From Octopus vulgaris (Eukaryota), in assembly GCA_951406725.2 (NCBI GenBank), contig CATOCA020000001.1:8990001-9054000 (forward strand): a stretch of DNA of 64,000 nt, in the 5' to 3' direction. The first letter of the stretch is position 1; the number at the start of each line of letters is the position of its first letter. The notes beneath the pieces are model-generated. The model was not told the origin of the DNA. It made no database searches and was given only the letters and a program-made list of their open reading frames with translations. Of this stretch, positions 9,967 through 64,000 are shown one piece after another. The position numbers were made by a program, and so were the translations under genes.

Positions 9967-10634
9967 TTGTAATGTCTGTTTATTTCTCGAACATCGTTGG
10001 ACAACGGGTGCTGGTTTGTACAATTCCCCGAACTTAGCGGTTCGGGAAAAGGGACCGATAGTTTAAATACTAGGCCTACAAAGTATAAGTCCTGGGGTCG
10101 ATTTGCACGAATAAAGGCATTGCTCCACCATGGCCGCAGTCAAATAATTGAAAAATTAAGTGTGTAAAATAGAAAATAACCAGAAAAGTTTATATTCTTT
10201 TAACTACATCAGTAAGGGAGATAACTGAAAATCAACTTTTAGAGTTACTTCCCTTGACATATTGATAAAAGGCATGACAGTTTAAGATGTAGGCGCGTTT
10301 GTTTTTGATGCGAAGGGCACACTTGCATTCGCGCAGGAAGATACAAACATACGCATGCAAATTTTCTGCTGTTCACTTTAACAAATAAACATTATAATTT
10401 ACATTTAATTACACCCGAAAACTATGTAAAGTACTCACCATATCTAGTACTACCCTTTGGACATGATCAGGTTTTTATTTTGTTTTAGATAGTATATATG
10501 CGTATGTGGGTATATACACGTGTATATGTATGAATGCATGCATTTATGTATATAAATATATATATATATATATATGTATTTATATATATATTCATAAATT
10601 TATAATTTTATATATATATATGTAGGTATATACC

Positions 10635-10681
<47 letters not shown>

Positions 10682-10683
<2 letters not shown>

Positions 10684-13674
10684 TCAAAAATGGAAGATAA
10701 AATTCCTGGAGGACTGGATCGATGCCCATCCAAACCACATCCCTTTCTTCGTCCTCACTGAAACCCATCTTAGTGACCTCCACTTGGAAGCCGAGGTGAA
10801 AGTTAAAAATTTCAAAGCCATTCGTGCTGATCGTGCTGGCAGAAGAAAGGGTGGGACTGCCATTTATGTTCATGATTCATTCTCAACAGAAGCTATGAAC
10901 ATATTTTCCAATGGATACTGCGAAGCAGTCGCTATATTCAGTCAAACCAACAACTTAACAGTAGTTGGGCTCTACAGACCACCCCAAACGCCCCTACCAT
11001 GCTTCAAGGAATGCCTCAACAACATAAAGTGTTTCATTCAGCAGTGTCAACCTGACAACATTTTAATGATGGGAGACTTCAACCTTCCCGGGGTTGACTG
11101 GTCTACAAACAGTCTGCCGCCAGGTTCTTCTCTCTCAACCCCTGACAGGGAGGCAGTGGAATCGCTTCTTGACTTCATGGATGATTTCTTCCTGTCCCAA
11201 CTGGTGCTCGAACCAACGAGATGTCACAAAAACGTCTTAGACTTAATTTTCAGCAATCACACTGATACTATCCACAATATTGCAGTGGAGAAAACCCTAC
11301 TCTCCGACCATGACATGGTTCTCTGTGATCTGAGATTTCACCGGCCAAAATGCAAAACAAATGTCATCCCTCCTGTTCATCCATTTGACACTATGGATTT
11401 CCACAATGCAAACTGGGAAGCGATCAATAATGATCTTGCACAAGTCGATTGGTCCTTCACGCACACATACACACCCACTAACATCAAAAAGTCCTGGCAG
11501 TCATTTGTAGACACCATTACGAACATATGTGCAAACCACACCCCATTAAGATCTGCAAACAAATCTAAGTGTCGAATCCCTAGAAATAGAAAATCTCTCA
11601 TCAGGAAAATTAAAAGAATTAACAAAAAAATCAACGAGCTGAAATACTGTCAACAGCAACACACCAACCTGACTGCCATCTCGTCGCTAGAGATTAAAAA
11701 ACATAAACTCCAAAACAACATGATGTCTATCATCAATAGTCAGCGAAGAGCTGAAGAGGCCTGGGCCATTGAGAAGATCAAACTCAATCCCAAAGTATTC
11801 TTTTCATTTGCAAAAAAACACAGAGTCACTGGTTCTACTGTTGGCCCTCTGATTGATGAAAATGGTACTCTTCAAGACAATGCCAAAACCATGGGAGAGA
11901 TATTGCAGAAACAATACTGCTCTGTTTTCAGCAATCCTGATATGACTGATCTGGTCTGTATCAGTGATGTTACTCCCCAATACACTTTATCGGACATAAC
12001 CTTTGGTGCTCCTGATGTCTTAGCAGCAATAAAGGAAATGAAGCATAAATCAGCAGTAGGTCCCGATAGGTTCCCTGCTTGTGTCTTGAAGATGTGTCAA
12101 CACCAACTTGCACCCACTCGAGCCAATCTGTGGCGGAACTCACTGGATGCTGGATATATACCAGAAGACCTATCCCAGTTTGTATTCCCAGTTTTCAAAA
12201 AAGGAAACAAATCGCTTGCCGTGAATTACCGTCCAATCTCACTCACCTCTCATATCATTATGGTATTTGAGAGAGTGCTGAGATCGCGTATGACTCACTT
12301 CCTTGAGAGTCATGATATGCTGAACTCCAACCAGCATGGATTCCGTAATGGAAGGGATTGCCTGACGCAGCTACTGCATCATTTTGATGACGTTTTGAGA
12401 GCCTTGGGAGAGGGTTCCAACACTGATGTCATCTACCTTGATTTCAGCAAGGCCTTTGACAGGTTTGATCATAAGATCCTTTTGAGAAAGCTGTCTAATA
12501 TTGGTGTCACTAGAAAGCTGCTACAGTGGATCAAGTGCTTCCTGTCTAACAGAACCCAACATGTTGTAGTCGAAGGAGTCAAATCCAGCCCAGCCAAAGT
12601 CAGCAGTGGTGTCCCACAAGGCACGGTGTTGGGCCCACTTCTCTTCATCATCTACATAAATGATATTACTGACACCATCAAACACAGTAACATCAGAACC
12701 TTCGCTGATGATTCCAAGCTCCAGAAGGTCATCAATGGCGTGGATGACCGAATAAGCCTTCAGTCAGACCTACTGGCTGTTGTCCAATGGGCGGAAAAGA
12801 ACAACATATTGCTAAACATAGACAAATTCGAACTGATCCACTTTGGAAGGGAGGACGCTCTGAAACTCCCATACTCCCTTCCTTCTGGAGAAATTATCAT
12901 GGCGTCCAACAACATCAGAGATTTGGGAGTAACAGTGGACAGCAACATAAGCTGGGCTACACATATAAGCAGCAAATTTGACATGGCCCGCAGAATGTGT
13001 TCCTGGATTCTCAGAACCTTCCAGTCGAGAGATTCCCACACCATTATCCTTCTCTTCTTCACTTTTGCCCGACCCCCACCTTGAATACTGTTGTCCACTG
13101 TGGTCTCCCTACACGAAACAAAATATTATGAGAATTGAAGCTCCCCAAAGGTCAATCACAAAAAAGGTAGATGGCATGTCAGACCTTGACTACTGGGGTA
13201 GACTAGAGAAGCTGAAACTGTATTCACTCCAACGACGCCGTGAACGCTACATTATCTGTATGATGTGGAAAATATTCCATCAGCACTGTCCGAATGATGT
13301 TGGCATCACCTTCAAAATACATCCAAGGCTTGGACAACGTGCCATCCGTCCACAACAAAAATCTAAATCGCATCACATAACAACAATACGGCACAATTAT
13401 TTCACCTCAATTGGAACCGCTCTCTTCAACATTACACCAGGACACGTCAAAACAGAAACTGACCACACAAAATTCAAGAAGTCTTTGGACAAATTCCTTC
13501 AAACAGTCCCGGACAAACCATCCACACCCGGATATGTCTCCGCAAACAATAACTGTCTGCTCGAATGGGCCTTGGTGCCCAAATCCTGAATTGAAAGACT
13601 TCGCCAGGTGGTGCTATTAAGTTAGACATGGCCTGGGCCAATACTGGCCAAAACCTTTCTAAGTTATTCTAAGT

Positions 13675-31247: not shown

Positions 31248-32436
31248 AGGATTCATTATTTATTTGTCCTCATTTTGTTTGTTGTTCTCATTCCGAAGGT
31301 ATTTTTCGATGTTATTATTATTATTAAGGTCATTGCCTGGATTCGAACTCGGAATCTTGGTGTTAGTAGCCAGTGGGCAATTATGGAGTGAATTTTATGG
31401 GTTATAAATCTAATATTTCCCTATCCTTCCTTAATACCGGTTCCCATAGGCTATTCATATCTGCACTCGGTCTGCTTAGGAGGATGTTGTGTCCTTGCAT
31501 ATGTGCTGCTTCTTTTAGTTTTCCTATTTTCCAGTGGTGTTCTCTGTCTATTATTTTAACTTCATCCCACCCGGATGAGGTGGTCTCCATTTTTCCATAC
31601 ATGATCACCTATACCCGTTTTATCAATATCTCCTCGTGTCACAGCTTTGCGATGTGCGTCTACCCTTGTTTCGAGGGGGAGGCATGTTTCGCCTTTGTAT
31701 AACCTACCATAGCTGCATGGGATGGAGTACACGCAGTCTTTGGTCATATTCTCTTCTATTGGTGGTTTTACTCGAAGGAAATATTTGCGAAGTGTTGTAT
31801 TACTCTTGAATACTGTCCTGATGTCATATGGGCCGCATATCTTTTGTATCTTTTCGGAGAAGCCTTTCACATAGGGTAGACAGACTGTGGACAGTTCATT
31901 GGTTTCATCCTCTCTTTTCTTCATAATTAGAGTGGATTGCATATTTTGGGGTAGTTGTTACTTAATAGATTGTTACTTAGCTTGATCATTTCTTCGTTGT
32001 GGGTATCACAATCGATACTTATATTCTTTACTCGATGTTTTAGGCACTGAGCAATCCCTCTCTTTACACTGTATGGATTGTAGGAATTGAAGTTGAGGTA
32101 TCGTCCGGTGAAGGTCGGCTTGTAGTATACGGATGTCCTGAATCCATACTTGGTGCATGTTACTAATACGTCCAGGAATGCCAGCTGATTGTATTTCTCC
32201 TTTTCCATTGTGAACTGTATGGATGGCTTTATTGAGTTCACATGATATAACAGCACCTGAGCATATTCCTGGTGGGGCCAGACTATAAACGTGTCATCAA
32301 CATATCGCAGCCATAGGGTTGGTTTTAGTGGTGTTGATCCTAAGATTCACTCCATAATTGCACACGGGCATATGACGCAGTGGTTAAGAGCGCGGGCTAC
32401 AAACCCTAAGATTCCGAGTTCGATTTTCGATTCCAG
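31248..32436 (-). mobile_element. 5'-truncated Penelope-like element (RT C-terminus + GIY-YIG endonuclease, frameshifted), with a 3' pseudo-LTR and an inverted partial pLTR at the 5' end
   Basis: Minus-strand translation: WLRYVDDTF, IQFTMEKE..LAFLDV..YKPTFTGRYLNF, LPYVKGFSEKI, VYSIPC..YKGET..R..H..E. 32345-32436 is an inverted copy of ~31337-31393. Confidence 0.92.
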
Positions 32437-48132: not shown

Positions 48133-50095
48133 TTATCTCTCATAATAAAATAATCCATCAAAACGGTTGTCCAAATTTCCGTAAATCATGATGAAATAAT
48201 CCGAAACATGTATGGCCTTGATGTGGCAGACTTCAATTTCCTGAGAGCTGAGAAAGATTTCGCATTTGCTGTCTACAGATACTTGGTGGATATTGTTATT
48301 AAAATCTGATATGTAAATATTTTCGCCGTGGATGGTCAAGGATTTGTTGAAAATGTTTGGAAATGGTTCCTCACCTTGAATCATTAGTTGTTGACTTCTT
48401 ACCCAATTGTCTCTGTACCAACATACATCGTAATGATCTTCCTTGTACTTAAGAACGACGATGTCTTCATTCGATGTCACACCCATTGCTACAACCTTCC
48501 CCTCCTTCCCTAAATTCACTCGGCCCTTATACTCGTACATTTCACCGCCAATGTGAAGTATGTCTGCGTATGTCCCATATGGAATATTACTACATTCATT
48601 TGGAGCGTCTTCAAACACACATACCAGATTTTTGCCGTTCTTTTTGTACATTAAATTGTATGGTTTTTCAGTTGTGATCTTTTTTAAAAGACACAAATCT
48701 GTATCGAAGAACATCAGTTGTTTATCGTCCCGAAAGAGGACTACAAATGATTCATCGGTCCATTGACATATATCTTGAGCTTCTTTTTCAAATGTTTGAC
48801 TGTAAAGCAGATGACCGTCTCCACTGGTGACCATGAGAGTACATTTATGGAGGAGCACGACGATACTATTGTCTTGTAACATAATTAGCTTAAAAGCATT
48901 AAGAAAACAAAACATCGAATTTGAATCTAGTAAACCAGATAGAGAAAATGAAAGCGGGAACATTGCTGTTCTATGTGGCAGTCTTCTCACTGATATTTCA
49001 TCAATTCCTAACATACTTTCCGCTATGTAATTACCACGTCTTACTTCTATTTCCCTTGATGTACTTCTTCTTTCTCCTCCATCGCCACCGTTTTTAAGTT
49101 TGTTAAATAATTCATTACTGAACATTCCCTTCTTCTTCTGAGATGTAATGGAAGGGAAATGAAGGCCAGAATCAAGATTCGATAACGACATAGATTCCAG
49201 AACCTTCAGTTGGTCCCCATCAATTTTTATAGTATCACATTCAATCATGTTGATATGTACACACCAGTAAATATTTCCCACTTTTCTCCATATTATACCA
49301 TAAGGTACTCGACTTTCCCAAACTTTATATTTCTCCAAGTTTTGTGACTTCAGTTGAAATATTTCTTGTCTGTTAGGGAGTGTGACCAAGATATTTCTTT
49401 CTCCTGTAAAACATACACCACCAACAAAACTTCCAAAATCTCTGTAACATAGCAACTTCCCGTCATCATCAAATAGTTTAACATTTCCACTATTGGCCAT
49501 TTCGCACACAACTGTCTTTCCTTCATCAGAGATATCGATATCTTTTACTTGAACAGGACAATTGTTTGTTTGTAACCGTGAAACGGGGAATTTTTGCCGA
49601 TTAATCTTGTACAAACCTTCAATATATAAGTACGAGTCATAGTTTGCAACAATTCTCGGGCCTTTACAGTTAATACTGTTGAAATCCAACGGACGTTTAT
49701 AATGTCTTTCATTTAAGAATATTCCCTTGTATTCACCGTTCTGCAACAATGAGACAATACGATACTTTTTCGTGTTTTCATAGATGTTCTTCCGCCCAGT
49801 AATGTACAAATAAGTATCATCGGTTGCCATAGAAATGGGTCGGGAATAAATACTGTGCTTAAATGAATATAAATATTGCCCGTTCGGGTTCAGAATAGTG
49901 ATGAGCCTCTCGGTATTGACGATGATGTTGTCATTAGCAATAACTGAGATATGGGTGATATTATATCTGTAGCACATCCAAAATAAGTCTATTTCTCTCA
50001 TAATACGGACAGCTGACTGTATTTCATCGATATATATATAAAACAGGCCGTTTTCAATTTCGGGTATGCGGGTACCACCACCAACATTACTGCTG

Positions 50096-50151
<56 letters not shown>

Positions 50152-52976
50152 GCTACACACCAGTAGATTGTCGGATCGACAAGCGATACAATTGTATCGA
50201 TTTTCCGTGTGGTAAGTTGCCAAGACCAATGGGAATTCCACTTTTAATGTCAGCAGTTGATAGTTATTGGTCGTTATAACCAATGTGTTTGATCGCCAGC
50301 AACACATATGTCTAGGGACAACATTTAACTTGATAGAGTCAACAAGTTGACCATCAAAAGTTAATATCTTCTTAATGTTTTCATTTGTGCTGTCATATAA
50401 AGCAACCAGGTTATTTTCTGTAATAACCAAACAACCAATCTCCACTGGATGTCTATCTCCAAAACTTTGAGGGACAACAACTTCATGAGCTTTATCAGAA
50501 ACTGTGAGATCTTGTAGATACAATCTAGAAGACAACATTTCACTGAGACTGATGTTTCTAGAAAATACATCTACCAGATCGATGAACATGTTAATTTGGC
50601 TTCTTGTGACATGATCTTTCACCAGCAAGTCATGCTCATTTACAGCAAACATGCGGCTGTTGTCTATCAAATGAACACACATTTTATCAATACGTCCACC
50701 ATAGAGATTGGATTGTGTTTTCCCTTGCGACAGTAAAATATTGGGTATCATCTCAATGCTATAAGGACCACCGTCATAACCATAGAGATTGGAGGGTGTT
50801 TTCACTTGGGATGGTAAAACACTTCTTCTCCTCTTCCTGATGATCTTGTAGAAGAATACTGCTTTCTTACCAACAATCAATAGTTTTAGTGTTTCATTTT
50901 CTAACGATAATGATTTCATTACAAAAGGAATATTAATTTTATGAATTATTTGAACTTCATTACAATTTTTAATGTTTAAAATATCTAAATGCGATGGTTT
51001 ATCGCAATAACAAATAATATGACTTTCACCCAGCTTACACACCCGTACATAAGCCTGGTTTAATGCTACACTTATAACTGCCTTTGATACGTTTCCGACG
51101 ACCCGTAATTGCTTCTCTAGAGGTAATGTGACGCCTATCTGATTATAATTCCATCGACATATATCTGTAGCTGTAGACGGCAGAGATAATATAGACACAA
51201 TGTTCCCTTCGTTGGAAATGTATAACAAACAATCATTATATATGTCGGACAACACCAACTGTCCATTTGCCAGATGACATATTTCACCAATGAGAACTTG
51301 GTCATTCTCCTTTTCTTCGAGTCGAATATTTAGATTTTTATTATAAGGATTTTGAAAGGTTACATGACAGTCTGACCAGTCATGGTACTTGTAAAGAAGA
51401 ATCCGACTGAGCAGATCGTCCAGCACATAAGCTGTTCCTTGGAAAACAGCAGCGTGACAGCGAAAGTTTGAAGGAAGTTTCAACTGCCATTTCCTTTGTC
51501 CAGTTATATTGTAACAAGTCATCAAAGACTCTCTCCTGAAGATAACATAGAAGTATAATTTGTCTGTGAAAACATGATGAGGATAGCCATTGAACTCAAT
51601 GTGTTTCTTGGAAAGCTCCTCACCAAAGCTTGAATAAAATAACAAGTTACGTTTCTTTCTGTCTACAACTACAAAATTAATTGGAGTAGCAGCAATGGCG
51701 ACATTGTCATGTTCCAATGAAATTCTGTTTACAATGTCGACATGATCCGTTTTAATCAATAAAATATGTACCTCCACTTTACCTTCATTGGTGGTCAGAG
51801 CCAAACACCTATTTGATACCATATGACACATTTGAATGTAATTGTTTTCGACGTCTATTAAATCACCTTCAGTTAGTTGTGGACAGGTAACATATTGAAG
51901 TTTCCTGTCCTCACTAAAAAGGACAAGAAATGTGTTCGAATCCACTCTGCAGAAAACAGAAGGCTGGAGTTTAAAGGTTAAACATTTTCCACCAAACGGT
52001 TGCCCTTCGTCAGTAACTAATATAGCTTTTAGATCCCGATATATAATTACTACTGAAGAGGCTGACATAGGTAGAATCGTTGTAATGTTGGAGGGGTCAT
52101 CAATATGGATTTGGTTTATCAGGCTCGGGACATGGTCTTGGTGATGGTAAGACAGCCGAGGCCAAAAATCTTTATTTGTCCTAATAATATGTACAAGACC
52201 AAAACGGTCAGTCAAGTAAATATTATTTGTTGCCACACAAATATATCGAGCTTTTATCCCAATTTCTCTTTGGGACACAGCACCGTTTGCTGAAATCTTG
52301 TAAATTACATTTCCTTGCAGAGCGTAAGAATAATTTCGATATACGGTGAGGTCGGTTGGAATATCGATGGAATGGGTCCTCAACTGAAACAAGTGTCTGC
52401 CATCTATTGTGTAACAGCTAATTCTATTTATATTAGCTAAGGCTATTAAGATATGATACTGTGGACCAACTGCTATGTTTCCAACAATTTCTTGCACACT
52501 AAATTTTTCTTCAAATTTATTTTTATCCCAGTCTATGAGATATATTGTCTTACTAAACATTTCTGTCCCTACAAATGTAGAATGTTCGAAATAGGAAATT
52601 GTAAAGAAACTATAATCCAGAGATTTTATGTGGAAACTTGATGGATTAATGAAAACTATTTTCTTGCGGAAAGGAATTGTGGCTAGAACAGTGTGTTCAC
52701 CAATTCTTGTCATGTCTGTGACATTAGAAGAACAATGAAAATCAAAATCACCGCCTGTTGTGGCACAACTTATTAACTTCAAATCTGGTGAATAGGTTAC
52801 TATTCCATTGCAGATTTCAACGATTCTTGAAACTGTGACCAGGTTGTTGGAATCGTTATCGGAGTCTGTGAGCTGCAATATTTTGGACACAGCTGGGCAA
52901 AGGGGACGGAATTTGGATGAATGCGACTTCATAATACTTTTACAGTCAAAACGTGGTATCTGCATGTAGTGATCAT
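48133..52976 (-). CDS. Terminal coding exon (~1614 codons) of an uncharacterised protein with six tandem NHL-like/6-bladed beta-propeller units; upstream exons not identified
   Basis: Uninterrupted 4.8-kb ORF of non-repetitive DNA. Pyrimidine tract and acceptor TTTTATTTCTGTTGTTATTGTTATTCAG|ATGATCAC at 52977/52976 (phase 1 relative to the ORF). A ~260-aa periodic motif recurs (e.g. ATDICRWNYNQIGVTLPLEKQLRVV). No TE domains seen. Confidence 0.85.
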
Positions 52977-55219
52977 CTGAATAACAATAACAACAGAAAT
53001 AAAATTATATTAAATTTTCAAAAGACATGAATGGGTAATATTAATTTGTAACAGCAACTTCCTACGCAATTCGAGTCACAAAAAATATCAAATCTTCTCA
53101 ATTTAATGAAAACATTGCACAACATTCCTACCACACCATTTTCAAGACACTTTCCATTTCATTTATTGTAGATAAACACGGAAATAGCAACATCAGTGGG
53201 GTTACAAGCTGAAAACACTGATATACACCAGCGGAGTTTGTTACTGAAGAGCGATATCCGTGATGATCTGGCTATGTATACCTTGACCACTTCAATTGTG
53301 GTTAATACTAGAAGGTCTACACATGTACAACCACATACTGTACAATGAGGAAATAATTTAATGCATCCCGACTGCTACCACACTCCACCCCACAAAACAA
53401 AACACTGTATTTTGTAAGTTAACTCTGTGATGTTTAACAAGATGAAAGAATGGAATATTTGACGGGTTAGATCTGGGTGTTTTTTACGGAGGCTGTGACC
53501 AGCTGCGTATTGTTATATATATGTGTGTGTATGTATGTGAGTACTAAATATGGCCTGAGTAGCTATTACACGACCAATCCTAAGATTTATGATCTCTTTC
53601 TCTCTCTCTTTCTCCTTCTCTCTTTCTTTCTCTCTCTCTCTCTTTCTTTCTCTCTCTCTCTCTCTCCCTGACCTCATGTTAGACGTTAAAAATTAGATTA
53701 GCCCCAACACCAATTCTATGAATGAATGAGGTAAATAAAATTCGAATAAACAAAACAGAAATTGCCTTTTATCGATTTAGAGAAAACGAATAATTATTGA
53801 TAATTTATAGTCAATAACTTTCTGCACTCCACTTCCTTATTGCTGGGCTAATTCTAGATGCTCTGATTTAAAATACTAATTAGTGTTTTACAAATATACA
53901 GATATATATGAAAATATTCACAGAAATATATAAACCTGTAATTACCCATGTGATCTTTTAGTAATTACTAGTATTTATGGCAATCCAGAAACCTGTAATT
54001 ATCCATTATCTCAGTTGAGATTTGGTCAGTCTATCTCCTAATTTAACATGTATAACTTTGATGTATTTGCAAGTAATTAGTATCCATCGCTACCTACCAT
54101 CACTACCACTATCATCATTGAACGTCGGTTCCCCATTCTGGCAGGGTTTGTACGTTTTGTCAGGGGCTGGCTAGGGAGAAGAATGCACCAGGCTTCACTG
54201 TCTCATTTGGCAGGATTTTACAGCTTGATACTCTTCCCAACACCAACAACCTTACAGTGGGATCTGGATCCACAAGCACTGGTGGGGGTCACCAAAGAAC
54301 TTGGAAGACAAAAAGCCTTTGAGAGGGAGAGCATTGGAGGAGGAGGTGGTCGTGTGTCAGGGGATGACAGGTTCGACTGTGACAGAGGGACTGAAACAGG
54401 TGTCTTATAGTAGAAGACATACATGATTACCCGGTGAGAGGAGGCGGGCAAGAGAAACAGTGAGAGTGAGCAACCAAGGAATGTTAATAAATAATTAAGC
54501 ACTCTGGTACCTCACACACCGTTGTAACTCAGTCTCCATCATTTACTGTTGTCAGCCTCCACCGCTCCTTCGAATCACTTTTTTAATCCTTATTGTCTCG
54601 TATCTTTTAGTCTGCATTCCGATTCTTCTATAATCTCTTCTTCTCCCATCTTAAACATATCAGTGAACAAACACATCATAGAGTAGTGAGGACTAACTTT
54701 CTAATAATTTGGAATGTGACTCAACCTCACTAATGTTGGTGCTATGATCAAATGCTCCCACTACACACTAGGAGGTGGTTGTTGGATGAGAGTTGACACC
54801 GTAAGTTTGAGAGGGAGGTTTAATCTTGCCGAGGACATGACAATCTCTTGTAGTGTTTGTGCCACAATTATATTCACCCAGGACCCTTTGTAAAGTGGTT
54901 GGCGATAAGAAGGGAATACCACCATGAAAAAGCTGGAATGGTTAATTGAGAGGTAATCCTCAAGCAATCATTATGGGTAGTTTACTGTTATGACATGGAC
55001 AGTGACCACCCATCCAGTACATGGGAGCATAGAGAGCAGATGATAAAAGGGAGAGGATGATATCATTTACTGTATTGAAACTTGCAGATAGTGAAAGGGA
55101 GCGAGAAAGAGAGAGAGAGAAAAAGAGAGAAACAAAGAAAGGCGGAGAGAGAGAGAGAGAGCTTGTCTGAGCTGCAAAGCAGCCTTCTACTTGAATAAAG
55201 GTAATATTGAATAGATATA

Positions 55220-55322
55220 ATGGTTGAATAGTGGACGTAATGACAGTGAAAAAAATGGTTGAATAGTGGACGTAATGACAGTGAAAATGGTTGAATAGTG
55301 GACGTAATGACAGTGAAAAAAA
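55220..55322. repeat. Three copies of a ~32-36 bp tandem repeat
   Basis: ATGGTTGAATAGTGGACGTAATGACAGTGAAAA(A)n repeated three times. Confidence 0.9.
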
Positions 55323-55325
55323 ATT

Positions 55326-55942
55326 TGTGTACATATTACATTTACATCTATAAATATACATCTACACATAAAATGCAAAATACAAAGTTATATCTTGATA
55401 TCGCTAGTGATAACAATACTCAAAATATATAACAGACTGGAATTTTTAGCTCTTCTTATTTCTCTGCATTTTATACTTTATAGACAATAGTCTTTTCTTT
55501 AATTTAACTTTTTACTATCCATCTGGACTATTCCATTTCTGCTCGCTAATTTTAGTTTTAATTTAATTCCCATTCATGTGAAACCACTTATTCTAGTTCA
55601 AATCATTGATGCAATTTTATACTAATTGCTATTTTTACTTTTGTTATGTTACGATTATATTATAATTTAGTTTGATTTTAATTATTACTTACTACATATA
55701 ATTCAATTGTTATTATTATTTTTATTGTTAAAGTGAAAGCATCTGACATAAAATAGAGAATTATTTTTGTTTCACTTTTAACACGTAATACTGAAATAGT
55801 GGAGAAGATATGATATTGCTATGGGCTCGCTCTAGGCAAGAAGTTGAACATTTTCGTTGGCCCATGACACTCCCCGGACCCTAAGTAAGGCATATGTAAA
55901 ATCTGAATGAAATTGGTTGTGTAGTTCTCAAGTTTTAGGGAA

Positions 55943-55981
<39 letters not shown>

Positions 55982-56010
55982 CACATTCTCAGTTTTAAAT
56001 ATATAAAGTT
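55326..56010 (-). mobile_element. Non-autonomous Helitron-like element, 3' (CTAG) end missing
   Basis: Near-identical to 61996-62667 but lacks the CTAG/hairpin terminus. Confidence 0.65.
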
Positions 56011-56039
56011 TATATATGTTGTTTTTTAACTCCATCACA

Positions 56040-57185
56040 GTTTGTGCCTTGATCCTATTGCCTCAAGACGTGTCTCTCAGCAAGCTACCGTACCATTGTC
56101 TTCAAGCTTTTGGCATGATTTCTCCTGCTATTTGTAACTTCACTTGTTTCTGCTGATCATTTACAAACGATACACAGCACTACTTATTCGATTTAAACCA
56201 CACTTTTGCCCCAAATGATGAGTTAATCCAGCCTAACCAGAATTATTTGCATATCCTTCTGATCTCTCCTTAGTATTATTAAGTAATCCATGAATGCCTT
56301 CTTGTTGTAATTCACTTGAGCCCTTTCTGCTGATATAAGTAACATCCTCATAACCATCTCAAACCAAATGGCTCATATTGTCAACATACGGCTATTCAAA
56401 TTCCTGTCTCAACACGATGCCAGTCTGTTGTAATATTTTCTGTGATGAACCGCATTGTGAAATCATTATAGCAGCTCCTAATCAGATCTTTAATCTCCTA
56501 TTAATCGTTCATTGCTTCCATCAACCATTTCTATGGTATAGAACAATAAGCATTAGCCAGATCAGGCCATACATCTTTCAAATCAGTTATATTCTCCTTT
56601 CCTTCTCGCATTAATTCCAGATTGAAAATGCTTGTTGCGCACACGCTGGAGGTCCGGTGATTCCAGTCCTCCGGACACATTTGCTCAGATAGCCATTCTT
56701 TTATAGATATGTAGCTGATATCTAAGCCCATGTAAACCTTACCATTCTCTATTGAAATTGTCCTGCTGCCACTTGCTTTGGTAAGTAAACACTTTCTTGT
56801 ATGTACAGGTCATCAATCGGTTCACCTTTATACCCCAAATCTCTTCTTCCAGGTTATGCTTATAACATAACTGAGTACAACGTTTCTATACGTTCTGTGG
56901 TACAGCATCACCTCGTGTTGCACTCTAAACTCTTACTTTCTTCACACAACTCTCAACTTCTTTCTTCCTCTTTCTTCATGAAATCACTAAGCTGAAATAT
57001 TTTGATTCTTCGTTTCATTCGGCATTTCAGACTCTCCATGGCTGGGAATGGTTGATTTCGCTTTAGGTCACTGTACATCTCTTGTATATTCCCATCATTT
57101 TCCATGCCTTATAGCCTGCGACACATGGCATCAACAAACACCATTCTAGTACCATTAGAATGGTCCTTTAGGAACTGCTATCTAA
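56040..57185 (-). mobile_element. Highly degenerate RLE-type (Hero/R2-like) non-LTR retrotransposon RT remnant; also at ~59050-60200 and ~62700-63840
   Basis: Minus-strand pieces VKKVRV*SATRGDAVPQNV*KRC, VWPDLANAYCSIP and KAFMDYL resemble the motifs VKKAR..SAPG..G.PY.VYK.CP, WLDLANAYGSVP and AFMDD, in the correct order. Confidence 0.65.
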
Positions 57186-57189
57186 AACT

Positions 57190-57310
57190 ATTTACCTTAT
57201 TTACATATTTGGCCTGATCTTGTTTGTTGTTAGCACAACGTTTCGGCTGTTATACCTTGCAGCCTTCATCAGGTGCTTTGAGGAAATTCCTAAGGTATTT
57301 TTCGATGTTG

Positions 57311-57378
<68 letters not shown>

Positions 57379-57550
57379 TTCATCATCATCATCATTATTA
57401 ATCACGTCACTGCCTGAAATCAAACACGGAATCTTGGGGTTTTAGAAGTATGCTGTACGCCAGGGGGAAATTATGAACCAAATTTTAGGGATTATGTTCC
57501 TATATTTCCTTAATACAGGTTCCAATATGCTACTCATCTCTACTTCGGAT
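57190..57550 (-). mobile_element. Penelope 3' end/pseudo-LTR fragment; also at ~60208-60574 and ~63846-64000
   Basis: Homologous to 31255-31470. Translation EMSSILEPVLRK matches DMNSLWEPVLRK of the 31.4-kb element. Shares TTGTTTGTTGTT and AAGGTATTTTTCGATGTT. Confidence 0.85.
57232..57277 (-). ncRNA. Minimal type I hammerhead ribozyme motif, copy A
   Basis: AGCAC-CUGAUGA-A-GGCUG(caagguauaa)CAGCC-GAAAC-GUU-GUGCU. Stem I is AGCAC/GUGCU, stem II is GGCUG/CAGCC, and stem III is the palindrome AACGUU. Confidence 0.85.
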
Positions 57551-58660
57551 AGTGGGCCCATTATTGATGCCCTCCACAAAATTGATTGGCATTCCTAAAT
57601 CTCCGCTCTCAATTAAGACATCTTACATATCTCATTTACTTCTCACGTATCCACCTTAATAAAGTAGATGAGGTAATGGCAAACTTGATAGAAGTCAAAA
57701 AGGTAATGTTGATTTATACTCACCAACTGGTTCTACTTCTGTTTGAACTTCATTGTCAACAAGTGCTGGCGTCTCTGAAATAAATATTCTAAATTTTACC
57801 CTTCATAGAAAAACATCTTTATATTTCTTAATAATCAAAATGTTATTCTTGTGAGGTATTCCTGTCGTTGCTGGTCAGCTGGTGACCAGTACTGCTCGGG
57901 TCGACATTTTCATACTTTCTACAGTAATACCATGTAATAGCTCAATATCCAGGTCACAACTAAATAGACTCACCTTCCTATATATCCCAATTATGGCATC
58001 CTACATAATCTAACAATAACCCTATTAAGACATCTATATAATCTTATCATTACCTTCTTTAATTTTTCATTTGAAAACACTGATAATCACCTAGATTAAT
58101 TTTCCCTTTCATCAGTCGGAGCCCTATCAATGATCTGGCATTGTCTTATCACCTGCAGATTTCTCTAATCAACATTCTTCTCCTCTTCTAATTCTGATGT
58201 CAGTGAAGCTGGTCTCCAAACATCTAACCATAAACGCATGTCACAATACATCAAGTAGGATTAATATACACCTGCTCTCTTTTTAAAAGGTTGCTGCTGG
58301 TAATCTTTAATCTTAAATCCCCACATCACAATTCATCGGAATAGGATATGATTCTGGAAACATTTGAAGATATTTCAATGTCATTAATCCTCCTTAATAA
58401 GCAGCTAATTTCAGGTGAACAGTGTTTGCTCCTAAGCAAGTGGAGCAGAAAGTGATATCAGGTATCCCAAAACACTGTACTCTTGTATAGAAACTCATTA
58501 ACTAGACACACAGACACACACACATATACACACATGCACACAATCACACACACACACATACACATATATCTATGTGTGTGTGTATGTATATATGTATATG
58601 TATGTAGATGTGTATGTATATATATACATAGGTTTATACATACATGCATACATATATATT

Positions 58661-58723
<63 letters not shown>

Positions 58724-58761
58724 AGATGGATAGATAGAAAGATAGATAGATGAATAGATTA

Positions 58762-58798
<37 letters not shown>

Positions 58799-58828
58799 GA
58801 GTGAGAGAGAGAGAGAGAGAGATAGATG

Positions 58829-58892
<64 letters not shown>

Positions 58893-60249
58893 TAAGATAG
58901 ATAGATAGATTTATGAACGTACATTTACATATTATTGCAAAGGAATTATATCTGGAATAGTACTGACTCTCAAGAATATATAAGCAAGACAGAGATATAA
59001 ATCAAACTGGAAGCGCCAAATTTATTTTGCATTATGTTTTGATTTTAACTCCATCTCAGTTTGTGCCTTGATCCTATTGCCTCAAGACGTGTCTCTCAGC
59101 AAGCTACCGTACCATTGTCTTCAAGCTTTTGGCATGATTTCTCCTGCTATTTGTAACTTCACTTGTTTCTGCTGATCATTTACAAACGATACACAGCACT
59201 ACTTATTCGATTTAAACCTCACTTTTGCCCAAATAATGAGTTAATCCAGCCTAACCAGAATTATTTGCATATCCTTTTCATCTCTCCTTAGTATTATTAA
59301 GTAATCCATGAATGCCTTCTTGTTGTAATTCACTTGAGCCGTTTCTGCTGATATAAGTAACATCCTCATAACCATCTCAAACCAAATGGCTCATATTGTC
59401 AACATACGGCTATTCAAATTCCTGTCTCAACACGATGCCAGTCTGTTGTAACATTTTCTGTGATGAACCGCATTGTGAAATCATTATAGCAGCTCCTCAT
59501 CAGATCTTTAATCTTCTCTTAATCGTTCATTGCTTCCATCAACCATTTCTATGGTATAGAACAATAAGCATTAGCCAGATCAGGCCATACATCTTTCAAA
59601 TCAGTTATTTTCTCCTTTCCTTCTTGCATTAATTCCAGATTGAAAATGCTTGTTGCGCACACGCTGGAGGTCCGGTGATTCCAGTCCTCCGGACACATTT
59701 ACTCAGATAGCCATTCTTTTATAGATATGTAGCTGATCTCTAAGCCCATGTAAACCTTACCATTCTCTATTGAAATTGTCCTGCTGCCACTTGCTTTGGT
59801 AAGTAAACACTTTCTTGTATGTACAGGTCATCAATCGGTTCACCTTTATACCCCAAATCTCTTCTTCCAGGTTATGCTTATAACATAACTGAGTACAACG
59901 TTTCTATACGTTCTGTGGTACAGCATCACCTCGTGTTGCACTCTAAACTCTTACTTTCTTCACACAACTCTCAACTTCTTTCTTCCTCTTTCTTCATGAA
60001 ATCACTAAGCTGAAATATTTTGATTCTTCGTTTCATTCGGCATTTCAGACTCTCCATGGCTGGGAATGGTTGATTTCGCTTTAGGTCACTGTACATCTCT
60101 TGTATATTCCCATCATTTTCCATGCCTTATATCCTGCGACACATGGCATCAACAAACACCATTCTAGTACCATTAGAATGGTCCTTTAGGAACTGCTATC
60201 TAAAACTATTTACCTTATTTACATATTTGGCCTGATCTTGTTTGTTGTT

Positions 60250-60295
60250 AGCACAACGTTTCGGCTGTTATACCCTGCAGCCTTCATCAGGTGCT
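60250..60295 (-). ncRNA. Minimal type I hammerhead ribozyme motif, copy B
   Basis: Same as copy A apart from one stem II loop substitution; core and stems intact. Confidence 0.85.
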
Positions 60296-60328
60296 TTGGG
60301 GAAATTCCTAAGGTATTTTTCGATGTTG

Positions 60329-60402
<74 letters not shown>

Positions 60403-61930
60403 TTCATCATCATCATCATTATTAATCACGTCACTGCCTGAAATCAAACACGGAATCTTGGGGTTTTAGAAGCATGCTGTACGCCAGGGGGAAATTATGA
60501 ACCAAATTTTAGGGATTATGTTCCTATATTTCCTTAATACAGGTTCCAATATGCTACTCATCTCTACTTCGGTTAGTGGGCCCATTATTGATGCCCTCCA
60601 CAAAATTGATTGGCATTCCTAAATCTCCGCTCTCAATTAAGACATCTTACATATCTCATTTACTTCTCACGTATCCACCTTAATAAAGTAGATGAGGTAA
60701 TGGCAAACTTGATAGAAGTCAAAAAGGTAATGTTGATTTATACACACCAACTGGTTCTACTTCTGTTTGAACTTCATTGTCAACAAGTGCTGGCGTCTCT
60801 GAAATAAATATTCTAAATTTTACCCTTCATAGAAAAACATCTTTATATTTCTTAATAATCAAAATGTTATTCTTGTGAGGTATTCCTGTCGTTGCTGGTC
60901 AGCTGGTGACCAGTACTGCTCGGGTCGACATTTTCATACTTTCTACAGTAATACCATGTAATAGCTCAATATCCAGGTCCACAACTAAATAGACTCACCT
61001 TCCTATATATCCCAATTATGGCATCCTACATAATCTAACAATAACCCTATTAAGACATCTATATAATCTAATCATTACCTTCTATAATTTACATTTGAAA
61101 ACGCTGATAATCACCTAGATTAATTTTCCCTTTCATCAGTCGGAGCCCTATCAATGATTTGGCATTATCTTATCACCTGCAGATTTCTCTAATCAACATT
61201 CTTTTCCTCTTCTAATTCTGACGCCAATGAAGCTGGACTCCAAACATCTAACCATAAACGCATGTCACAATACATCAAGTAGGATTAATATACACCTGGT
61301 CTCTTTTTAAAAGGTTGCTGCTGGTAATCTTTAATCTTAAATCCCCACATCACAATTCATCAGAATAGGATATGATTCTGGAAACATTTGAAGATATTTC
61401 AATGTCATTAATCCTCCTTAATAAGCAGCTATTTTCAGGTGAACAATGTTTGTCCTAAGCAAGTGGAGCAGAAAGTGATATCAGGTATCCCAAAATACTG
61501 TACTCTTGTATAGAAACTCATTATCTGTACACACACAAACACACAAGCACATACACACACGCACACATGCACACACACACACACATATCTATATGTGTGT
61601 GAATGTATATATGTATATGTATGTAGATATAGATGTATGTTGATATATATATATATATATATATATTTCTATATATAAATATATGTGTATATATTTATAT
61701 ATATATATATATATGTGTGTATATATTTATATATATATATATATATATGTGTATATATTTATATATATATAAATACATGTTTATGTATCATATATGTATA
61801 TATATATATATATGAACGTTCATTTACTTATTACAGCAAAGGAATTATATTTGGAATAGTACTGACTTTCAAGAATATATAAGCAAGACAGAGACATAAA
61901 TCAAACTGGAAGCGCCAAATTTATTTTGCA

Positions 61931-62667
61931 CTAGCATTAAAGACCCATCGTTGCCGTGTCATAGTGCTAGTGCATGTATATATGTGTATATATTTGTGTA
62001 CATATTACATTTACATCTATAAATATACATCTACACATAAAATGCAAAATACAAAGTTATATCTTGATATCGCTAGTGATAACAATACTCAAAATATATA
62101 ACAGACTGGAATTTTTAGCTCTTCTTATTTCTCTGCATTTTATACTTTATAGACAATAGTCTTTTCTTTAATTTAACTTTTTACTATCCATCTGGACTAT
62201 TCCATTTCTGCTCGCTAATTTTAGTTTTAATTTAATTCCCATTCATGTGAAACCACTTATTCTAGTTCAAATCATTGATGCAATTTTATACCAATTGCGA
62301 CTTTTCCTTTTGTTATGTTACGATTATATTATAATTTAGTTTGATTTTAATTATTACTTACTACATATAATTCAATTGTTATTATTATTTTTATTGTTAA
62401 AGTGAAAGCATCTGACATAAAATAGAGAATTATTTTTGTTTCACTTTTAACACGTAATACTGAAATAGTGGAGAAGATATGATATTGCTATGGGCTCGCT
62501 CTAGGCAAGAAGTTGAACATTTTCGTTGGCCCATGACACTCCCCGGACCCTAAGTAAGGCATATGTAAAATTTGAATGAAATTGGTTGTGTAGTTCTCAA
62601 GTTTAGGGAAACACACAGACAGACAGACAGACAGACACACATTCTCAGTTTTAAATATATAAAGTTT
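61931..62667 (-). mobile_element. Non-autonomous Helitron-like element
   Basis: The minus-strand 3' end is GACACGGCAACGATGGGTC..CTAG at 61931. The empty site GCA|TTATG is seen at 59031/59032. Internal (GACA)n; the 5' TC end is degenerate. Confidence 0.75.
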
Positions 62668-63887
62668 ATATATGTTGTTTTTTAACCGCATCACAGTTTG
62701 TGCCTTGATCCTATTACCTCAAGACGTGTCTCTCAGCAAGCTACCGTACCATTGTCTTCAAGCTTTTGGCATGATTTCTCCTGCTATTTGTAACTTCACT
62801 TGTTTCTGCTGATCATTTACAAACGATACACAGCACTACTTATTCGATTTAAACCACACTTTTGCCCCAAATGATGAGTTAATCCAGTCTAACCAGAATT
62901 ATTTGCATATCCTTCTGATCTCTCCTTAGTATTATTAAGTAATCCATGAATGCCTTCTTGTTGTAATTCACTTGAGCCCTTTCTGCTGATATAAGTAACA
63001 TCCTCATAACCATCTCAAACCAAATGGCTCATATTGTCAACATACGGCTATTCAAATTCCTGTCTCAACACGATGCCAGTCTGTTGTAACATTTTCTGTG
63101 ATGAACCGCATTGTGAAATCATTATAGCAGCTCCTAATCAGATCTTTAATCTCCTATTAATCGTTCATTGCTTCCATCAACCATTTCTATGGTATAGAAC
63201 AATAAGCATTAGCCAGATCAGGCCATACATCTTTCAAATCAGTTATATTCTCCTTTCCTTCTTGCATTAATTCCAGATTGAAAATGCTTGTTGCGCACAC
63301 GCTGGAGGTCCGGTGATTCCAGTCCTCCGGACACATTTGCTCAGATAGCCATTCTTTTATAGATATGTAGCTGATATCTAAGCCCATGTAAACCTTACCA
63401 TTCTCTATTGAAATTGTCCTGCTGCCACTTGCTTTGGTAAGTAAACACTTTCTTGTATGTACAGGTCATCAATCGGTTCACCTTTATACCCCAAATCTCT
63501 TCTTCCAGGTTATGCTTATAACATAACTGAGTACAACGTTTCTATACGTTCTGTGGTACAGCATCACCTCGTGTTGCACTCTAAACTCTTACTTTCTTTA
63601 CACAACTCTCAACTTCTTTCATCCTCTTTCTTCATGAAATCACTAAGCTGAAATATTTTGATTCTTCGTTTCATTCGGCATTTCAAACTGTCCATGGCTG
63701 GGAATGGTTGATTTCGCTTTAGGTCACTGTACATCTCTTGTATATTCCCATCATTTTCCATGCCTTATAGCCTGCGACACATGGCATCAACAAACACCAT
63801 TCTAGTACCATTAGAATGGTCCTTTAGAAACTGCTATCTAAAACTATTTACCTTATTTACATATTTGGCCTGATCTTGTTTGTTGTT

Positions 63888-63933
63888 AGCACAACGTTTC
63901 GGCTGTTATACCCTGCAGCCTTCATCAGGTGCT
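63888..63933 (-). ncRNA. Minimal type I hammerhead ribozyme motif, copy C
   Basis: Identical to copy B. Confidence 0.85.
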
Positions 63934-64000
63934 TTGGGGAAATTCCTAAGGTATTTTTCGATGTTGTTGTTATTATTATTATTATTACATTTTTTTTCTT

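Follow-up and report, generated by a model that had tools for sequence, protein, structure and literature searches.

Three minimal hammerhead motifs in duplicated octopus introns as probable remnants of a tRNA-headed Penelope/Poseidon retroelement

Penelope elements are recognized by an inverted, 5'-truncated copy beside the upstream pseudo-LTR (pLTR) and an optional tail of 30-40 bp, as set out in the parts of PMC8557442 drawn on here. In the anole element PAc, target-primed reverse transcription from the tail has been demonstrated and the hammerhead ribozyme needs the protein of the element for cleavage (Frangieh et al. 2024, PMC11167929). Within the sections of that paper cited here, PAc resembles the octopus family described below in its single ORF with RT and C-terminal GIY-YIG, in a hammerhead lying in the pLTR and overlapping the ORF start, in an optional tail of ~30 nt and in the use of uncut RNA as the insertion substrate. 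It differs in that the octopus pLTR starts with an A/B-box head of tRNA origin, not mentioned for PAc in those sections, followed by (TAA)n, and in that the octopus start codon lies 5' of the entire ribozyme. The minimal hammerheads of metazoan Penelope-like elements (PLEs) cleave poorly even as dimers (Cervera and de la Pena 2014, PMC4209133); they share with the octopus motifs an extra base between positions 9 and 10.1, G10.1-C11.1, a 5-bp helix I, a palindromic 15.2-16.2 and occurrence mostly as solo truncated copies, whereas helix II is 5 bp long here and 7-8 bp in the Schistosoma examples, and the cited portions of that account describe no tRNA head.

Other small repeats offer partial parallels, each taken from the portions of the source cited. 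The schistosome Sm-alpha and Sj-alpha repeats likewise place a Pol III-type promoter ahead of a hammerhead in a short interspersed unit, but they are non-coding, often tandem and bear canonical ribozymes, whereas in octopus a coding retroelement has the unit as its terminal repeat, which inserts in solo or inverted copies (PMC6765202). The TRIMp3 elements Cassandra, Helenus and Ajax carry a small-RNA-derived Pol III promoter inside a retroelement terminal repeat, yet are non-autonomous LTR elements, while in the octopus family the coding element itself bears the head (Kojima 2024, PMC10886601); the same paper argues that autonomous TRIMp3 partners must use polymerase II and that a long shared LTR stretch is unlikely. 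Metazoan non-LTR retrozymes are small hammerhead-bearing repeats for which movement by Penelope enzymes has been proposed, but they form head-to-tail repeats of 170-400 nt with canonical ribozymes, unlike the minimal copies spaced 3.0 and 3.6 kb apart here (Cervera and de la Pena 2020, PMC7229834). A tRNA-headed Penelope family was not found described in the literature searched, and could be included among the further ribozyme families listed in the supplements of PMC4209133.

The window considered here is the whole analysed stretch of 64,000 nt from Octopus vulgaris, in which three hammerhead motifs lie on the minus strand:

57232 to 57277, minus strand: copy A of the minimal type I hammerhead, cleavage predicted after +57237
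60250 to 60295, minus strand: copy B of the minimal type I hammerhead, cleavage predicted after +60255
63888 to 63933, minus strand: copy C of the minimal type I hammerhead, cleavage predicted after +63893

An earlier note, made from the letters alone, had proposed these motifs, and a minimal-hammerhead descriptor recovers exactly three matches in the 64-kb window, compared to none in 60 first-order simulations of it. Stems I and II have 5 bp each, as the note had drawn them, the three 46-nt copies indeed differ only at one base of loop II, and the expected absence of T4 until ~45 nt past the ribozyme is borne out by a first T4 located 44 nt downstream in each copy. The reading of stem III as a palindrome AACGUU was mistaken, this stem being only 2 bp long and loop-less with the 4-mer ACGU as its palindrome. 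An unpaired A sits between A9 and G10.1, cleavage is predicted after the U of each copy, and the motifs are spaced by 3018 and 3638 nt. The motifs thus display the features given for minimal type I hammerheads of PLEs in the cited part of PMC4209133, namely the conserved core, the extra base after A9, G10.1-C11.1, a palindromic loop-less stem III and a helix I of 4-5 bp. The Rfam hammerhead models, suggested earlier as a check, gave no match at E<=10 in 56900-57700, nor did the tRNA model; nothing in the whole window reached the gathering score, and ARAGORN reported zero tRNAs in it.

Each motif is embedded in further remnants of a retroelement, and a separate copy of the family lies elsewhere in the window:

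57190 to 57231, minus strand: 3' tail of the pLTR, copy A, with family matches stopping at 57189-57205
57308 to 57400, minus strand: pLTR-internal (TAA)n/(TGA)n tract of copy A
57416 to 57427, minus strand: B box of the copy A tRNA-derived head, degenerate, with two mismatches
57452 to 57462, minus strand: degenerate A box, copy A, three mismatches
57463 to 57541, minus strand: decayed Penelope ORF end and spacer ahead of the head, copy A, matching loci L010 and L137
60326 to 60424, minus strand: (TAA)n tract, copy B
60440 to 60565, minus strand: degenerate tRNA-derived head and ORF-end remnant, copy B, with a B box at 60440-60451 (two mismatches) and an A box at 60476-60486 (three mismatches)
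63988 to 64000, minus strand: 3' end of an inserted non-LTR retrotransposon that interrupts the copy C (TAA)n and extends ~1.5 kb past the window
31319 to 32415, minus strand: separate copy of the same Penelope family, 89% identical to L137 over 976 nt

The B-box remnant noticed earlier in copies A and B was found again, whereas the A box, which had been called missing, is present in degenerate form; the mismatches of both boxes are counted against the box consensus. With both boxes broken or absent, none of the three copies has the A/B-box head that a tRNA-derived SINE carries at its 5' end. In copies A and B, ~75 nt of a Penelope ORF end lies 5' of the head, reaching 57541 and 60565, and copy A is 77% identical to L010 over 57308-57541. 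The stretch matching 57190-57231 is the start of the ORF in the full element, and at loci L140, L211 and L212 the tail continues into that ORF. Copy C lost its head through the insertion of the LINE, which is presumably R4/Dong-like, judging by its motifs, and which is 95-97% identical in amino-acid sequence to a LINE at the equivalent position of a paralog. A decayed RT-like stretch at 56020-57190 matched neither Pfam nor the copy C LINE. The separate copy, at 31319-32415, retains ~1 kb of ORF, a damaged head and an inverted 5' piece, its ribozyme having been deleted.

The threefold occurrence is explained by the structure of the host gene, the relevant parts of which are as follows:

48136 to 52976, minus strand: large last coding exon, an open frame of ~1610 codons with its splice acceptor at 52976
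57724 to 57774, minus strand: 51-nt exon, copy A, of 17 codons, phase-1/phase-1, with AG/GT ends, an in-frame join to the large exon and support in spliced contigs
60748 to 60798, minus strand: 51-nt exon, copy B, with donor GTGTGT in place of GTGAGT
55323 to 58700, unstranded: duplication unit A, exon plus intron
59033 to 61707, unstranded: duplication unit B, with 56015-58700 and 59033-61707 being 96.5% identical
61992 to 63987, unstranded: partial duplication unit C, lacking exon and head, 98.4% identical to 55323-57331

The product of the large exon may contain NHL-like beta-propellers, a weak lead given by NHL look-alikes at 0.90-0.91, with Pfam reaching just E 0.035. The joint from 52976 to 57724 has GT..AG polarity on the minus strand, and exon-exon joints are present in contigs from the runs of several studies, although these contigs represent mostly paralog-type genes and their source runs are only guessed to be RNA. 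Four further copies of the gene (98-99%) bear equivalent exon-plus-ribozyme units, numbering one to four per gene copy in step with the exon, and three paralogs possess a 72-nt upstream exon 5' of all ribozyme units. The spliced contigs point to removal of the ribozyme-bearing introns by splicing in the paralogs. No back-joint at the ribozyme was found among the joints listed in the contigs, which drop rare forms. Near the ribozyme the intron has low cover in the contigs, an observation that carries no weight as evidence. The duplicated blocks, at 96.5-98.4% identity, make the triplication a by-product of tandem exon-plus-intron duplication; the motifs are not a purpose-built triple cassette. 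Jointly, and with a probability of roughly three in four, the three motifs are the decayed 3' pLTRs of one intronic insertion that was duplicated along with an exon, is likely inert and is spliced out, the family from which it came being presumably driven by polymerase III.

This family is dispersed over many contigs, with 1529 first-look candidates, 40 of which were scored. Its layout runs from an ORF with RT and GIY-YIG through a stop, ~45 nt, a tRNA-Arg-like head, (TAA)n, a start codon, the hammerhead and the tail, and then on into the next ORF. Locus L010, 95.5% identical to the window over 1.7 kb of flanking sequence, presents a GIY-YIG frame immediately 5' of the head, (TAA)n and ribozyme, in addition to an inverted ribozyme piece. 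A frame of 569 aa with RT and C-terminal GIY-YIG motifs is found at L137, where RVT_1 scores E 2.7e-6 and 27.7 bits, below the cut-off of 29.6; the family's own GIY-YIG part has no Pfam match, and its assignment rests on the visible motif and on the homolog P0069, which scores for both Pfam families. The pLTR flanks the ORF on both sides at L220 (unit, ORF, unit), partial tandems of ORF end, unit and ORF start occur at L213 and L214, and inverted 5'-truncated copies lie beside the upstream pLTR together with the optional tail. On inspection, RT and endonuclease are not joined by a Zn-finger linker in the L137 and L144 frames, which sets the family apart from Neptune and Nematis; a control Penelope family does carry that linker. 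By these sequence features, the family is a high-copy Penelope/Poseidon retroelement.

The head at the start of the pLTR is tRNA-Arg-like with A and B boxes that retain tRNA spacing, and over its full length it can be aligned to a complete tRNA-Arg(TCG) gene from this genome (score 55; z 8.5 against 200 shuffles), the best match among 25 distinct tRNAs tested. The Rfam hammerhead and tRNA models yielded no match at relaxed E-values for the window unit, six loci and one head, the last going unscored by the tRNA model. Since the head is found no more than 300 nt from the ORF end in 25 of the 30 ORF-end copies, the tRNA-like block belongs to the family, as the earlier note had expected; the unit, which the note called SINE/retrozyme-like, is the pLTR of a coding Penelope/Poseidon element and no independent SINE or retrozyme. 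The usual property of a SINE, a head absent from the autonomous partner, is lacking for the same reason. Octopus genomes reportedly carry short tRNA-derived repeats, the OK, OR1 and OR2 SINEs of Ohshima and Okada in 1994. OR1 and OR2 are of tRNA-Arg origin. OR2 is a CORE SINE, according to the cited part of PMC4758252, which the present unit appears not to be.

Most copies of the family are non-coding solo units of ~230-300 nt that start 3-20 nt before the A-box region, often arranged as inverted pairs with target-site duplications of 11-17 bp; direct repeats of at least 8 nt border 14 of 21 insertions, compared to 7 of 420 mismatched pairs. Solo copies of the pLTR behave in a SINE-like manner. 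The element begins within 20 nt of the head, at -20 to -3, in 25 of 30 head-anchored copies, half of which (15/30) have a perfect B box; this sample was chosen via an exact match over the A box and is therefore uninformative on A-box conservation. Counts of exact 20-mers, one word per point and with inverted arms counted twice, rise from 744 at about -146 and 896 at -45 to 3917 in the head and 11811 in the tail (reversed controls 0), such that the drop at the head start is 77% over ~65 nt, as opposed to 17% over the next 110 nt. An RNase P cut at the tRNA 5' end is a less likely source of this boundary, the cloverleaf not being kept and many copies extending 6-8 nt further 5'.

No T4 run is shared between copies along the 2.6 kb of the family, whereas a control Penelope family, the one such control examined in depth, shares nine within 1.9 kb. 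The family has 29 T4 runs in 73.7 kb of 65 loci, none common to more than 4 of 55 copies, while the control, of like composition, has 5.7 per kb. The deficit is weaker against nulls built from the family itself: Markov models give 1.0-1.2 T4 per kb, and synonymous shuffles of four natural frames (3 vs 3.1, 0 vs 1.8, 0 vs 1.2 and 0 vs 2.4) make it modest relative to the codon usage of the family; the count is low in an unrelated LINE frame too (2 vs 5.6). A scan for paired A and B boxes (0/25 in the control, 16/30 in this family) is left out of the evidence because a stricter B-box rule was applied to the control.

The lack of a shared T4, an element start near the tRNA-like head and the target-site duplications together point to transcription of the family by polymerase III, with SINE-like solo pLTRs as its product; with a tRNA-derived promoter at the start and no shared Pol III stop signal, the family likely spreads from such transcripts. 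Polymerase III would start ~13 nt before the A box, and readthrough of the T4-free unit would give an RNA with ribozyme and tail, which the element's own RT-endonuclease could copy by target-primed reverse transcription beginning in the tail. At the start site, a short hairpin may then let the cDNA end fold back, giving rise to head-to-head pairs. Uncut RNA would be the source of the inserted copies, and cutting would thus be dispensable for insertion. A bolder extension, tentative and short of probable, is that a protein-coding Penelope switched to RNA polymerase III by capturing a tRNA-Arg promoter, with a terminator-free transcript over the whole 2.6 kb, tens of thousands of SINE-like solo repeats as its outcome and the ribozyme in the coding frame serving as a switch between template and message.

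The head could instead be a captured relic that plays no part in polymerase III transcription, in which case the 5' boundary would reflect polymerase II initiation within the pLTR, or RT stalling and folding back at the hairpin, and the solo units would be ordinary 5'-truncated Penelope copies. This account is rather unlikely, though it draws on an internal promoter reported in the pLTR of Drosophila Penelope (in the cited parts of PMC8557442 and PMC6765202), on the need of the ORF for translatable RNA, normally made by polymerase II, on the modest T4 deficit against codon use and on the scatter of 5' ends from -20 to -3. Against it, the boundary falls where a polymerase III start ahead of the A box is expected, both boxes retain tRNA spacing, shared T4 runs are absent here but present in the control, and the hairpin has just 5 bp. 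Improbable, by comparison, is a separate SINE lineage of tRNA head and Penelope-derived tail that borrows the Penelope enzyme, with ORF-linked heads as secondary chimeras: solo units do outnumber ORF-linked ones by ~4 to 1 at the head and possess target-site duplications of their own, but 25 of the 30 ORF-end copies have that head in that position, L211 and L212 begin at the head and continue into the ORF, and the ORF start codon falls inside the unit.

Least credible of these is selection on the intronic ribozymes for an effect on the host gene, by which cis pairing through ACGU would cut the pre-mRNA or free intron RNAs of 3.0 and 3.6 kb. The earlier note had raised such cutting for motifs in introns of a minus-strand gene, and the motifs are indeed intronic and sense to the gene. 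Compared to a typical family copy, the window ribozyme is changed at five positions that spare the core and all ten pairs, both partners of one pair being substituted (simulated chance of a structure-sparing pattern, 0.014; the ribozyme is intact in 20 of 112 family copies), and the ten gene-linked copies show three differences, every one in loop II (chance of none elsewhere, 0.07-0.16). The motif was, however, chosen for its intact look among tens of thousands of copies, and its number follows the exon. A private change 3' of the window ribozyme is predicted to pair with the core, and with 125 nt of context the predicted probability of stem I falls to 0.0, from 0.89 for the bare motif; the minimum-energy fold of the dimer is not the ribozyme, with the caveat that single-strand folding is unable to model a dimeric ribozyme. 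Spliced contigs exist, the gene copy of the window shows no 72-nt upstream exon in a search to 40 kb beyond it, and the published activity of such motifs is nil as monomer and low as dimer (PMC4209133) or protein-dependent in the anole element (PMC11167929), as given in the cited parts, making cis-dimer cutting of the pre-mRNA appear unlikely. A retrozyme reading is set aside, as short tandem monomers are lacking, the ribozyme is minimal and the widely spaced units are exon-plus-intron duplications.

The three window copies, as decayed pLTRs, are of little importance in themselves, and it is the family that matters. It touches on how the 5' boundary of a Penelope pLTR is set and from which promoter such elements are transcribed, a question that becomes testable here, where the pLTR boundary coincides with a tRNA-type promoter. 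It bears equally on the origins of SINEs and on whether Penelope enzymes move SINE-like RNAs, this family showing a route by which a coding element directly supplies the short mobile unit in the form of its terminal repeat. Polymerase III transcription of the full element, if it occurs, would contradict the common assumption that autonomous retroelements depend on polymerase II, and the family would then represent an autonomous retroelement acting as its own SINE.

A descriptor of the minimal type I hammerhead, made up of the core, an optional extra base, stem II, a palindromic stem III and a stem I of at least 4 bp, matched three times on the minus strand of the window, compared with no match in 60 simulated windows, and thereby confirmed the three ribozyme motifs described in the earlier note, each of which lies inside a duplicated unit:

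57232-57277, minus strand, hammerhead copy A
60250-60295, minus strand, hammerhead copy B
63888-63933, minus strand, hammerhead copy C

All three motifs have stems I and II of 5 bp, an unpaired A after A9, a loop-less stem III of two pairs and a GUU triplet, the same traits as the minimal ribozymes of Penelope-like elements in PMC4209133. Rfam returned no match at gathering score in the window, and neither it nor ARAGORN matched the cassettes. The A box, previously held to be missing from these copies, is present in a degenerate form, and the B box is broken.

The ribozyme cassette is the pseudo-LTR (pLTR) of a Penelope/Poseidon element, as argued by a frame with RT and GIY-YIG that precedes it, a tail (the stretch 3' of the ribozyme) that enters an ORF, and the overlap of this ORF with the ribozyme. 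Queried with the ribozyme region, the 2.8 Gb genome yielded 1529 first-look candidates, 40 of which were scored; the top ten were the window copies and gene-linked paralogs, and the others were dispersed, at 82-92%. One locus, L010, has 1.7 kb of downstream flank in common with the window, and its cassette is still preceded on the 5' side by a reading frame that bears RT-thumb and GIY-YIG motifs. Its frame yielded 4286 candidates (150 scored), and among the best 30 of those scored, 25 had the tRNA-like head no more than 300 nt from the ORF end and 21 the ribozyme tail no more than 900 nt away, so that the earlier proposal of a family coupling promoter to ribozyme proved right. For the 569-aa frame of locus L137, comprising RT plus GIY-YIG, 2914 of 7990 scored homologs reach E<=1e-20. 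The post-ribozyme tail runs on into the 5' region of the ORF, and in locus L212 more than 200 stop-free codons extend from an ATG that precedes the ribozyme, across the latter and into the ORF, with the ribozyme-encoded peptide pattern recurring at the start of a 55%-identical homolog. The family resembles in this respect the anole Penelope element PAc, whose ORF also overlaps its ribozyme (PMC11167929).

The same Penelope family has a further copy at 31319-32415 of the window, in which a 5' piece is inverted and the ribozyme deleted; its 3' sequence nearly equals that of locus L074 (5.51 Mb on contig C31, which also holds the window at 8990001-9054000), a likeness that suggests an additional segmental duplication. 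The insertion site of the Penelope element, at 56020-57190 (minus strand) and in its duplicates, is a decayed RT-like remnant for which Pfam gave no match. In the family unit, the spacer that separates (TAA)n from the ribozyme includes another B-box-like word, which the window copies have lost by deletion along with the start codon, and 7 nt of complementarity to loop II, through which a loop-stem contact might form.

The head aligns end to end with tRNA-Arg(TCG) of the same genome (score 55, z 8.5) and with tRNA-Arg(TCT) (score 52.5, z 8.1), the best among 25 distinct genomic tRNA genes, a set without some tRNA types. A 34-mer covering the A box has 546 exact matches, compared with 0 for the control; among the first 30 copies, 25 start 3-20 nt 5' of the word, the other 5 extend into ORF-side sequence, and in about 11, judged by eye, the head folds back on a short hairpin at the start point. 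Exact matches to CpG-free 20-mers number 744 at about -146, 896 at -45, 3917 in the head and 11811 in the tail, and therefore the loss clusters at the start of the head; once 5-7% decay is taken into account, the genome would hold tens of thousands of units. No ORF-end sequence was seen by eye in the printed stretch of each of 30 tail-anchored matches. Flanking direct repeats of at least 8 nt, mostly 11-17 nt in length, accompany 14 of the 21 insertions whose 3' end is complete (the other 9 of 30 were dropped) and 7 of 420 mismatched pairs. The short units are therefore insertions in their own right, and an origin as products of deletion was rejected.

T4 runs are expected to be absent from a polymerase III template. 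The ORF sequence of the family contains 29 in 73.7 kb from 65 loci (0.39 per kb), and mapping on a natural near-full copy (16-55 copies per position) revealed 13 common T3 sites and no T4 run common to more than 4 of 55 copies. In a control Penelope family of the same genome and of similar base composition (T 24% vs 23%), T4 runs number 5.7 per kb, and 1.9 kb contain 9 that are shared (25 loci). The contrast is weaker against nulls based on family codon use, which predict only about 1-2 T4 per kb, with a probability of roughly 0.01-0.09 for zero T4 in 2.5 kb. The depletion is not seen in every single copy (3 T4 in L137 vs 3.1 expected), and T4 runs are likewise scarce in an unrelated LINE frame (2 vs 5.6 expected). 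The T4 deficit suggests polymerase III transcription but does not prove it. The control (L221-L245) is a second, younger family with a Zn-finger linker of the Neptune type; its first-look candidates number 18415, and several of its open frames exceed 800 codons.

Intact ribozymes occur in 20 of 112 family copies. The window ribozyme has 5 differences from the typical copy, all structure-preserving (simulated chance 0.014) and one a two-sided change in stem I, and the 10 gene-linked copies have 3 differences, all in loop II (chance 0.07-0.16), figures that bear the mark of a window motif picked for its intact look. In fold predictions, a private change downstream of the window ribozyme pairs with the core, and the probability of stem I is 0.0 for the window in context, 0.08 for the typical copy and 0.89 for the bare motif. 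According to PMC4209133, published minimal Penelope ribozymes show no activity as monomers and little as dimers; the anole ribozyme, according to PMC11167929, cuts only with the element's protein, is dispensable for insertion and produces no RNA-seq ends. Given the predicted loss of stem I in context and the weakness of published dimers, the suggestion that tandem copies cut the pre-mRNA as dimers in cis is probably wrong, and a host role for the intronic ribozymes is very improbable. In the family unit, for example at locus L078, the 3' strand of stem I can pair with the AC-rich tail as its own hairpin, competing with the ribozyme fold; this resembles the AC-rich stem-loop that the anole element has where RT starts, and it could be a built-in switch.

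The host gene and its paralogous copies, the latter 98-99% identical over the large exon, have the following features:

57724-57774, minus strand, 51-nt phase-1 exon of duplicated unit A
60748-60798, minus strand, 51-nt phase-1 exon of duplicated unit B
48136-52976, minus strand, large exon, acceptor 52976
C31 3.19 Mb, paralog, 4 gene-type ribozyme units
C31 4.67 Mb, paralog, 1 unit
C31 10.51 Mb, paralog, 1 unit
C28 8.15 Mb, paralog, 1 unit

The 51-nt exon is in frame with the large exon when joined at 52976, and each ribozyme unit of the paralogs lies either between short exons or 5' of them. A LINE inserted in the (TAA)n of several units, copy C included, separates head from ribozyme. The joint 52976-57724, with GT..AG polarity, occurs in contigs of two of four sequencing runs presumed to be RNA; in one run, X1, it passes via a variant exon present in the paralogs and absent from the window, and an 8-nt loose end is compatible with a joint between two standard exons. 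On one paralog, contigs join the variant exon to the standard exon in 3/4 runs, and in 2/4 the standard exon adjoins both the large exon and a 72-nt upstream exon, which is located 5' of all ribozyme units in three of the four paralog regions. From these joints and the position of the upstream exon, paralog mRNAs likely span the ribozyme-bearing introns and lose them. A search for the 72-nt exon in the window and 40 kb beyond it gave nothing, and the host gene copy of the window thus looks 5'-truncated. The near-identical gene copies represent either recent duplication or assembly duplication. With at least five near-identical members (window 48136-60798 and the four paralogs), the NHL-like multi-propeller genes form a young family whose acidic N-terminal linker varies by gain or loss of the 51-nt exon, from 2 to 6 copies per gene. 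At 55219-55320 of the window, a word of 31-35 nt, present as three copies in tandem, marks the junction of a deletion that removed two short exons relative to the paralogs.

At least two different LINEs, presumably R4/Dong-like, are inserted in the pLTR (TAA)n tract, at this locus and at dispersed ones:

window 63988-64000, LINE in (TAA)n
L031 1-1555, LINE in (TAA)n
L033, L034, L037 and L038, LINE in (TAA)n
L110, L129 and L135 (dispersed), LINE in (TAA)n

The tract is a landing pad for microsatellite-targeting LINEs. Elsewhere in the window, 10598-13081 (plus strand) holds an 828-codon open frame of the non-LTR retrotransposon type.

Every module is already known, Penelope pLTR ribozymes among them; promoter and ribozyme are joined in the schistosome SINEs of PMC6765202, and polymerase III promoters occur in LTRs of non-autonomous TRIMs in PMC10886601. 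The literature searched, which covered neither subscription journals nor Repbase, Dfam or the 1994 paper on octopus SINEs, gave no earlier example of a coding Penelope element whose pLTR has a tRNA-derived head, and the solo unit may already have been named as a SINE. The window locus is itself ordinary, and the interest lies in a family with a testable, possibly surprising promoter.
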